A DNA stretch of 59,414 nt, filler included, from Squatina squatina (taxonomy: Eukaryota): NCBI GenBank assembly GCA_031763465.1. It is 3 parts of 3 records of this genome, joined end to end, with 100 filler letters (N's around TTAATTAATTAA, not from the genome) between each part and the next. Parts side by side here need not be neighbours in the genome. Positions count along the whole stretch, not along the records: positions 1 to 23,480 come from JARFOE010000080.1; 2 more parts are not named here. One strand, 5' to 3'. Under the pieces are notes generated by a model. It did no database searches, was not told the DNA's origin, and saw only the letters and a list, made by a program, of their open reading frames with translations. Positions 6,393-7,020 of this stretch are shown here, one piece after another. How positions within the stretch are numbered: position 1 is the first letter of the stretch; each line of letters starts with the position of its first letter. Made by a program: the position numbers and the translations under genes.

Positions 6393-6464
6393 GGCCCACC
6401 AACTGATGCTCCAGCTGTGGATACAGCAGAACAAGTTTACATATCTTCACTTGCTCTGCTGAAG
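6393..6464 (+). pseudogene. PSMD14: PSMD14 (RPN11/POH1) 72-nt exon copy: GPPTDAPAVDTAEQVYISSLALLK
   Basis: TTTTTTAG acceptor, GTAAGA donor at 6465, phase 0/0. The peptide matches the recalled N-terminal part of vertebrate PSMD14 and lies within a TMEM131 intron. Confidence 0.92.
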
Positions 6465-6900
6465 GTAAGAGTGTAGGTTTGTTAGATCTTTGATCATGTT
6501 AATTATGTATTGTAGTTTAGAATGTAGTACCACAAAGCAAGTAAAATATAATCCATTTGACATCCCATCTCCCTTAGTACCATTTCTGGGCCACCGTATT
6601 CATCTTTTTGTGTTTTTAACAAAATGTTTTGGCTCCTTTTGTATTTTAAGTGCTTATCTTTACATTTAAAATGCATAACTACATATTGTTTGTCTTCATA
6701 ATAGAACATAATGACCTTAAATGATATAAAACAAATCCAGAATATGCAAAAACTAAACTCAGGGAAAAACAAATTTAAGTTGTGATGACTTATTATAACA
6801 TGGTAGTATTTCACACATTGTAAAGAAGGTTGTTTTCTCTTTCTGGGGTGAAAAACACTGACATATATATATATATATTTTTTTTTTTGGTAATGTGCAG

Positions 6901-7020
6901 ATGTTGAAACATTGACGGGCAGGCGTTCCAATGGAAGTGATGGGGCTGATGCTGGGTGAATTTGTTGATGACTATACTGTCCGTGTTATTGATGTATTTG
7001 CTATGCCTCAGTCAGGCACG
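6901..7020 (+). pseudogene. PSMD14: PSMD14 120-nt exon copy with nonsense codon: [39 protein letters not shown]
   Basis: CAG acceptor at 6898-6900, GTGAGC donor at 7021. Encodes the start of the MPN/JAMM domain. TGA at 6913-6915 stands where PSMD14 has Gly (MLKHGRAG). Confidence 0.92.

Follow-up and report, generated by a model that had tools for sequence, protein, structure and literature searches.

Two coding exons of PSMD14 lie, as assembled, within an intron of TMEM131 in the shark Squatina squatina, which raises the question of whether they belong to a working gene, to a dead copy of one, or to a chimeric assembly. In humans, TMEM131 is located at 2q11, far from PSMD14. The latter gene resides at 2q24.2 and encodes RPN11 (also called POH1), an essential JAMM deubiquitinase in which His113 and His115 bind zinc (PMC9428165). 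The cytoplasmic tail of TMEM131 binds TRAPPC8 and is needed for collagen secretion (PMC7015688). A survey of titles and abstract openings, in which subscription journals were mostly outside coverage, returned nothing on the genomic arrangement of PSMD14 and TMEM131, and the papers listed on gene fragments in sharks held nothing relevant. The analyses below cover a stretch of 59,414 nucleotides, hereafter called the window.

Location and identity of the exon pair

The exon lengths, shared phase 0, intron length and orientation given in an earlier note on this DNA were all reproduced (Table 1): AG precedes and GT follows each PSMD14 exon, and TMEM131 is encoded on the same strand. Exon A is identical to PSMD14 residues 17-40 at 24 of 24 positions (E 1e-9), and the part of exon B that lies 3' of an internal stop codon (from 6916) is identical to residues 46-80 at 35 of 35 positions (E 9e-18). 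Exon B also matches the Pfam JAB family (2.2e-7), and the two exons match PDB chains that we take to be human. The identity to PSMD14 is far beyond chance. Compared with RPN11 (PMC9428165), 63 residues are unchanged across positions 17-80, with position 45 as the only exception, but the fragment amounts to 64 of 310 residues, stops at 45, and lacks the zinc-binding histidines and aspartate.

Table 1. Features of the TMEM131 locus and of the PSMD14 fragment, with positions counted along the window.
Feature	Position	Strand	Description
TMEM131, 3' half	141..16317	+	Residues about 897-1886; tblastn with 7 named chondrichthyan TMEM131 proteins; some exons lost in gaps
TMEM131 exon 5' of the insert	4220..4378	+	End of transmembrane segment; phase 2 end
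Host TMEM131 intron	4379..8203	+	3825 nt as assembled, including 100 N; GT...AG ends
Inverted repeat, left arm	6144..6157		14 nt, perfect; brackets both exons
PSMD14 exon A	6393..6464	+	72 nt; residues 17-40; open frame; intact splice sites
Retained PSMD14 intron	6465..6900	+	436 nt; GT-AG; phase 0
PSMD14 exon B	6901..7020	+	120 nt; residues 41-80; catalytic Glu52 codon and premature stop
In-frame TGA	6913..6915	+	Codon 5 of exon B, Gly45 position; sole amino-acid-level difference in 64 codons
Gap	7081..7180		100 N; true length not fixed by N count
Inverted repeat, right arm	7711..7724		14 nt, perfect; beyond the gap
TMEM131 exon 3' of the insert	8204..8781	+	Residues 1172-1370; two internal gaps

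The earlier note had found no other PSMD14 exon, and searches of the 59-kb window with four named full-length RPN11 proteins gave the same outcome; the next-best match, at 39405, is of low identity (E 0.013). The exon for residues 1-16 does not occur in the 2014 gap-free nt upstream of exon A. Nothing similar to the retained PSMD14 intron was found elsewhere in the window, nor were other copies of the insert. The PSMD14 block within the TMEM131 intron is thus at least 628 nt long. Exon B yielded 5947 RPN11 matches, of which the best 120 are mostly unnamed fragments without a taxon, and no named shark fragments occur among these matches listed (best 120 of 5947). Antisense to exon B and to the PSMD14 intron, which is AT-rich, lies a frame of 160 codons free of stops (6503-6985, minus strand). 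This frame is probably a product of chance, and a search against 1.84 billion representatives produced a single, uninformative match (30% identity, E 2e-4).

The exon order of the host gene is correct throughout 141-16317, and the exon at 4220-4378 agrees with named shark TMEM131 proteins in all 52 codons (100%). Identity is highest to Pristiophorus japonicus (688 of 705 residues, 97.6%) and, over the same 705 residues, amounts to 95.0% for Heptranchias, 94.6% for Cetorhinus, 90.8% for Chiloscyllium, 88.2% and 86.8% for two rays, and 85.8% for Callorhinchus, a ranking that points most probably to a squalomorph source. Tail-to-tail with TMEM131 lies an inosine-uridine nucleoside hydrolase gene, represented by its last coding exon (18263-18612, minus strand; PF01156, E 1e-13); no further exon of it was found among frames of at least 55 codons.

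The assembly is heavily broken in this region. The 59-kb window consists of 45 contigs (median 1047 nt) separated by 44 gaps, 28 of which measure exactly 100 N. Contig 4053-7080, described as ungapped in the earlier note, indeed contains no N; it is the second longest of the 45 and holds both PSMD14 exons together with the TMEM131 exon at 4220-4378, which matches shark TMEM131. Nesting within the TMEM131 intron, as the earlier note had claimed, is consequently seen directly on the 5' side, whereas on the 3' side we infer it across the gap at 7081-7180. Both junctions of the insert must lie within the host intron, and neither was located there. Because TMEM131 residues 1371-1426 and 1568-1734 are missing at introns that carry 100-N gaps, such gaps evidently hide whole exons here, and the gap at 7081-7180 may conceal more PSMD14 exons or the right junction. 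The sequence immediately to its right (7181-7440) weakly matches 1943-2008 (67%, E 0.011). We take this sequence to be a shark SINE, which may explain the contig break. A 12-nt word of A and T only occurs twice, at 23525-23536 and 42134-42145, each time between two blocks of 44 N that bring the total to 100 nt; it represents a scaffolding linker rather than genomic DNA.

A premature stop codon and the state of the fragment

The earlier note had described the encoded peptides as consecutive N-terminal parts of PSMD14. This description stands for residues 17-40 and 41-80, but it overlooked the in-frame TGA at position 45, a residue that is Gly in three of four named RPN11 proteins and Ala in the other. 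The reading frame that a functional PSMD14 would keep open is therefore interrupted at 6913-6915. The JAMM motif, which in its complete form comprises Glu, His113, His115 and Asp, is represented by Glu52; the histidine-bearing exon is absent from the window and could lie in a gap. As judged from its sequence, the fragment at 6393-7020 is not a working gene and cannot be an enzyme, because it stops at 45 and because the window contains neither the start exon nor the zinc-binding motif. The alternative that a working PSMD14 was relocated into TMEM131, with its other exons in gaps, would draw on the capacity of 100-N gaps to hide exons and on the almost perfectly kept protein sequence. However, given the in-frame stop, the missing exon for residues 1-16 upstream, and the lack of any further exon in 59 kb, we consider this arrangement extremely improbable.

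Comparison with established categories leads in the same direction. A nested gene is a complete, expressed gene within a host intron, and this locus has 64 of 310 codons and a stop. A processed retrocopy has lost its introns (we used the hallmarks given in PMC5470649), and this fragment keeps a 436-nt GT-AG intron, which bears out the earlier view that it is not such a copy. The locus combines a kept intron, an incomplete coding region and a disabling change, as expected of an unprocessed partial pseudogene. The proposal that this is a displaced duplicate and not the genuine PSMD14 gene is now better supported than when first made, because of the TGA in exon B.

It is likely, taking all versions together, that the insertion is real, and with somewhat less confidence we favor the explanation that part of PSMD14 was copied, unprocessed, into the TMEM131 intron and is now dead. 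A stop codon fits a copy released from constraint, and PSMD14 is essential (PMC9428165). A further 820 coding codons of the window were examined and contain no stops, and because the PSMD14 exons represent 4.8% of the window's nonsense opportunity, a base error at random would seldom strike them. The join within a gap-free contig also counts for a real copy. Two considerations temper this explanation. First, nonsense changes make up 4% of amino-acid-changing opportunity, and with one nonsense and zero missense changes observed, neutral decay looks unusual, while a single base error fits equally. Second, a fixed insertion looks costly because it would place a sense-strand exon trap of host strength in TMEM131, which requires its cytoplasmic tail for collagen secretion.

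These considerations bear on the possibility that contig 4053-7080 is a chimera, in which a TMEM131 intron was joined either to the true PSMD14 (with a base error or a rare null allele at 6913) or to a pseudogene from elsewhere. Such an artefact would be unsurprising in so fragmented a draft (44 gaps, median contig 1047 nt), would account for 63 of 64 unchanged residues and intact splice sites as in a living gene, and would make the exon-trap puzzle disappear; a LINE-like segment at 4790-5340 is a possible place for the mis-join. On the other hand, the join would have to arise within a gap-free contig, and the version with a true gene adds an independent nonsense error (share 0.048). TMEM131 exons are in the right order throughout, the LINE reading is unconfirmed, and an old, diverged copy would be a poor substrate for mis-joining. 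Furthermore, when the 2014 nt between the exon at 4220-4378 and exon A were compared with the remainder of the window, a single short match of 42 nt emerged, so that, in this window-only search, there is no obvious young repeat on which to mis-join. A repeat finder applied to 4053-8263 returned short imperfect pairs and trivial tandem repeats only, and Rfam produced no matches in the window. On balance, an artefact is less likely than a dead copy, but it is a serious alternative and far more probable than a relocated working gene.

If the fragment is a dead copy, its divergence offers a rough age. One change among 142 amino-acid-changing sites corresponds to 0.7% (95% interval 0.02-3.9%). With the epaulette shark mutation rate of 7e-10 per generation (PMC10587355), and assuming neutrality, this single event gives an age near 10 million generations (0.25-56 million). 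A near-perfect copy in sharks need not be recent, and relatives of Squatina may thus share the insertion.

Candidate routes into the TMEM131 intron

The kept intron had been taken in the earlier note as an argument for capture at the DNA level. It does rule out spliced mRNA as the template, but the argument is too strong, because unspliced or antisense RNA also templates insertions (PMC5110952). The more specific suggestion of a Helitron- or Pack-type capture was not sustained, given that no Helitron end rises above background, no target-site duplication was found, and the one inverted repeat of note is borderline. In the search for target-site duplications, no exact direct repeat shared by the two flanks exceeded 11 nt, a length equalled or surpassed in 118 of 200 shuffles. 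For a Helitron 3' end, 19 CTRR-T sites in the flanks were scanned, and the best hairpin score (8) is reached or passed at 58 of 401 window sites; an end could be hidden in the gap at 7081-7180. No Rep/Helicase frame was identified among 187 frames 3' of TMEM131, none of which matches Pfam. When Helitrons captured gene fragments in bats, exons likewise moved with their introns and without a target-site duplication (Thomas et al. 2014, PMC4224331), but this locus exhibits neither a hairpin-plus-CTRR end above background nor a second copy in the window. We regard a Helitron as a highly improbable vehicle.

The Pfam scan beyond 16400 covered 191 of 199 frames of at least 55 codons, with 8 low-complexity frames omitted, and gave matches for 0 of 187 frames in the main set and 2 of 4 in another set, namely the nucleoside hydrolase exon and a Myb/SANT-like frame. 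Several possible mobile-element traces occur in the window. A 138-codon frame at 35769-36182 (plus strand) encodes a Myb/SANT-like DNA-binding domain (PF13873, E 1e-8), which we take to be characteristic of proteins from Harbinger-type transposons or of genes descended from these. Eight mutually similar degenerate repeats (14900-15545, 19560-19870, 22200-22486, 32240-32600, 39790-40080, 47335-48135, 48290-48640 and 49280-49445) are presumably the 3' part of CR1-like LINEs. The members of a small repeat family at 924-1126, 29603-29806 and 50754-50857 are 66-74% alike. Frames at 50862-51326 (minus strand) and 19808-20350 (plus strand) have no Pfam match and, in our reading, resemble pieces of RTE-clade LINEs.

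The perfect 14-nt inverted repeat that brackets the exons (Table 1) carries a TA close to both of its outer ends. If its arms mark the termini of a cut-and-paste transposon, at about 6144 and 7724, that element could have acquired the PSMD14 sequence through gap filling and thereby have carried the dead copy. A repeat of this length is reached in 4 of 300 and 2 of 300 Markov simulations, but 3 of 56 real window blocks hold an equally long match, and several end types were tried. Moreover, the repeat does not extend inward, has no third copy in the window, and places its right arm past the gap. We regard it as a borderline and weak lead that may reflect chance. Transposons of this kind (Pack-TIRs) are known in animals, where 13.4% carry exon sequence, and they resemble this locus in being exon-bearing, intron-keeping fragments inside host genes, often in host orientation (Tan et al. 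2021, PMC8277862). In contrast to the borderline repeat here, they have annotated transposon ends of one family on both sides, with a target-site duplication, and are recognized by a transposon-free parent copy at ≥90% identity; most single-copy examples copy nearby DNA (median 224 bp; PMC8277862), whereas the PSMD14 parent is probably not nearby. For these reasons, a Pack-TIR origin appears quite unlikely.

A LINE might also have supplied the machinery. By eye, 4790-5340 (minus strand) resembles the 3' end of an old LINE. Self-comparison with blastn gave one 42-nt match and tblastx none, all six pairwise tests fell within their shuffles, single-copy and profile nhmmer searches found no match, and in a frameshift-tolerant test one of ten peptides exceeded 25 shuffles. 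The LINE reading of this segment is thus unconfirmed, and an antisense copy driven by a LINE tail is retained as a low-weight idea. Class 1 templated insertions, which are LINE-driven, are characterized by a target-site duplication of at least 5 bp, a poly(A) tract of 10-40 nt and a polyadenylation signal, and a T9-A9 run at 5647-5664 is the sole tail-like feature in the flanks. A LINE-driven copy of unspliced or antisense RNA is accordingly an improbable route, only slightly less so than a Pack-TIR.

Class 2 templated insertions, which arise by break repair, are instead characterized by junction microhomology or a small deletion, without duplication. Templated insertions from intronic sequence are known, and those of class 2 lack duplications and tails (PMC5110952). 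They share with this locus the placement of a piece from a distant locus at an unrelated site, the lack of a target-site duplication or clear poly(A), and intronic sequence among the known templates; they differ in being human polymorphisms or experimental inserts of 73-414 bp, compared to at least 628 nt with two coding exons here (PMC5110952). With Pack-TIRs, Helitrons and templated insertions as precedents, intron-bearing gene fragments at distant sites are already known.

We propose that a parental stretch of at least 0.63 kb, comprising two exons, their intron and some flanking intron, was copied into the TMEM131 intron in a squalomorph lineage. The likeliest route would be the patching of a break without any transposase, or else a template switch, with DNA or unspliced RNA as the source. 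Events of this type would leave neither a target-site duplication nor element ends, and they serve as the default by exclusion, rather than on positive evidence, because no element signature is present. Break repair or a small segmental copy is our tentative choice of route, held at somewhat below even confidence; segmental duplications are by definition at least 1 kb long and at least 90% identical. Lacking the start exon and the metal-binding exons, the copy would never have encoded a functional protein, and it would have acquired one nonsense change since. It would normally be spliced out together with the host intron.

A related shark offers a further precedent. The Greenland shark carries partial multi-exon and retroposed copies of RAD51 (bioRxiv 10.1101/2024.09.09.611499), so partial duplicates are not unusual in this group of sharks, although the copies described there are local multi-exon duplicates or intronless retrocopies, unlike the PSMD14 fragment. 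PSMD14 is not mentioned in the main text of that preprint.

Splicing of TMEM131 and biological meaning

The orientation of the fragment invites the question of whether its exons ever enter TMEM131 transcripts. The donor sites of the two PSMD14 exons match the consensus at 8 of 9 and 7 of 9 positions, compared to 8 of 9 for the upstream host exon at 4220-4378. Because the host intron is in phase 2 and the PSMD14 exons are in phase 0, inclusion shifts the TMEM131 reading frame: read in the host frame, exon A stops after 23 codons and exon B after 2. A TMEM131 transcript that includes exon A or B would be expected to stop early and to lose the cytoplasmic tail, and it would presumably undergo nonsense-mediated decay. 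Neither PSMD14 nor a shifted-frame piece appears in any of 11 named chondrichthyan TMEM131 proteins, in keeping with a dead copy.

One could speculate that these exons have been co-opted as a poison exon whose inclusion tunes TMEM131 through nonsense-mediated decay or yields a membrane-anchored, tail-less TMEM131. The sense orientation, the splice sites of host strength, the early stop directly after the transmembrane exon, and the TRAPPC8-binding nature of the lost tail (PMC7015688) would all suit such a role. Against it, the 12 best TMEM131 matches (96-100% identical to the exon at 4220-4378) are 1382-1889 aa long, with none near the approximately 1195 aa of a truncated form. The shifted-frame exon A peptide has no relative among proteins of 24-77 aa, and a little-diverged copy keeps its splice sites without selection. 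A co-opted poison exon is thus very unlikely. The same low standing applies to the fuller scenario of a real insertion common to a squalomorph lineage whose exons serve as a regulated, shifted-frame poison cassette, with a Pack-TIR spanning 6144 to 7724 as its possible carrier.

The significance of the locus depends on which explanation holds. If contig 4053-7080 is a chimera, then gap-free contigs in drafts of this kind would be untrustworthy for claims of nested genes. If the insertion is fixed and its exons are spliced in, it would show an essential gene tolerating or even using a strong exon trap on its sense strand, and a true poison cassette would represent a dated natural splicing switch, made from a foreign coding exon, that trims TMEM131 output or its TRAPPC8-binding tail. 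If, as we favor, the fragment is a dead copy of PSMD14, it would add another gene fragment with its intron to a shark genome rich in repeats and be of little importance in itself; it would also caution annotators, since a near-perfect match to PSMD14 would then not be the gene, while the insertion would provide a clean presence/absence marker for squalomorph phylogeny.
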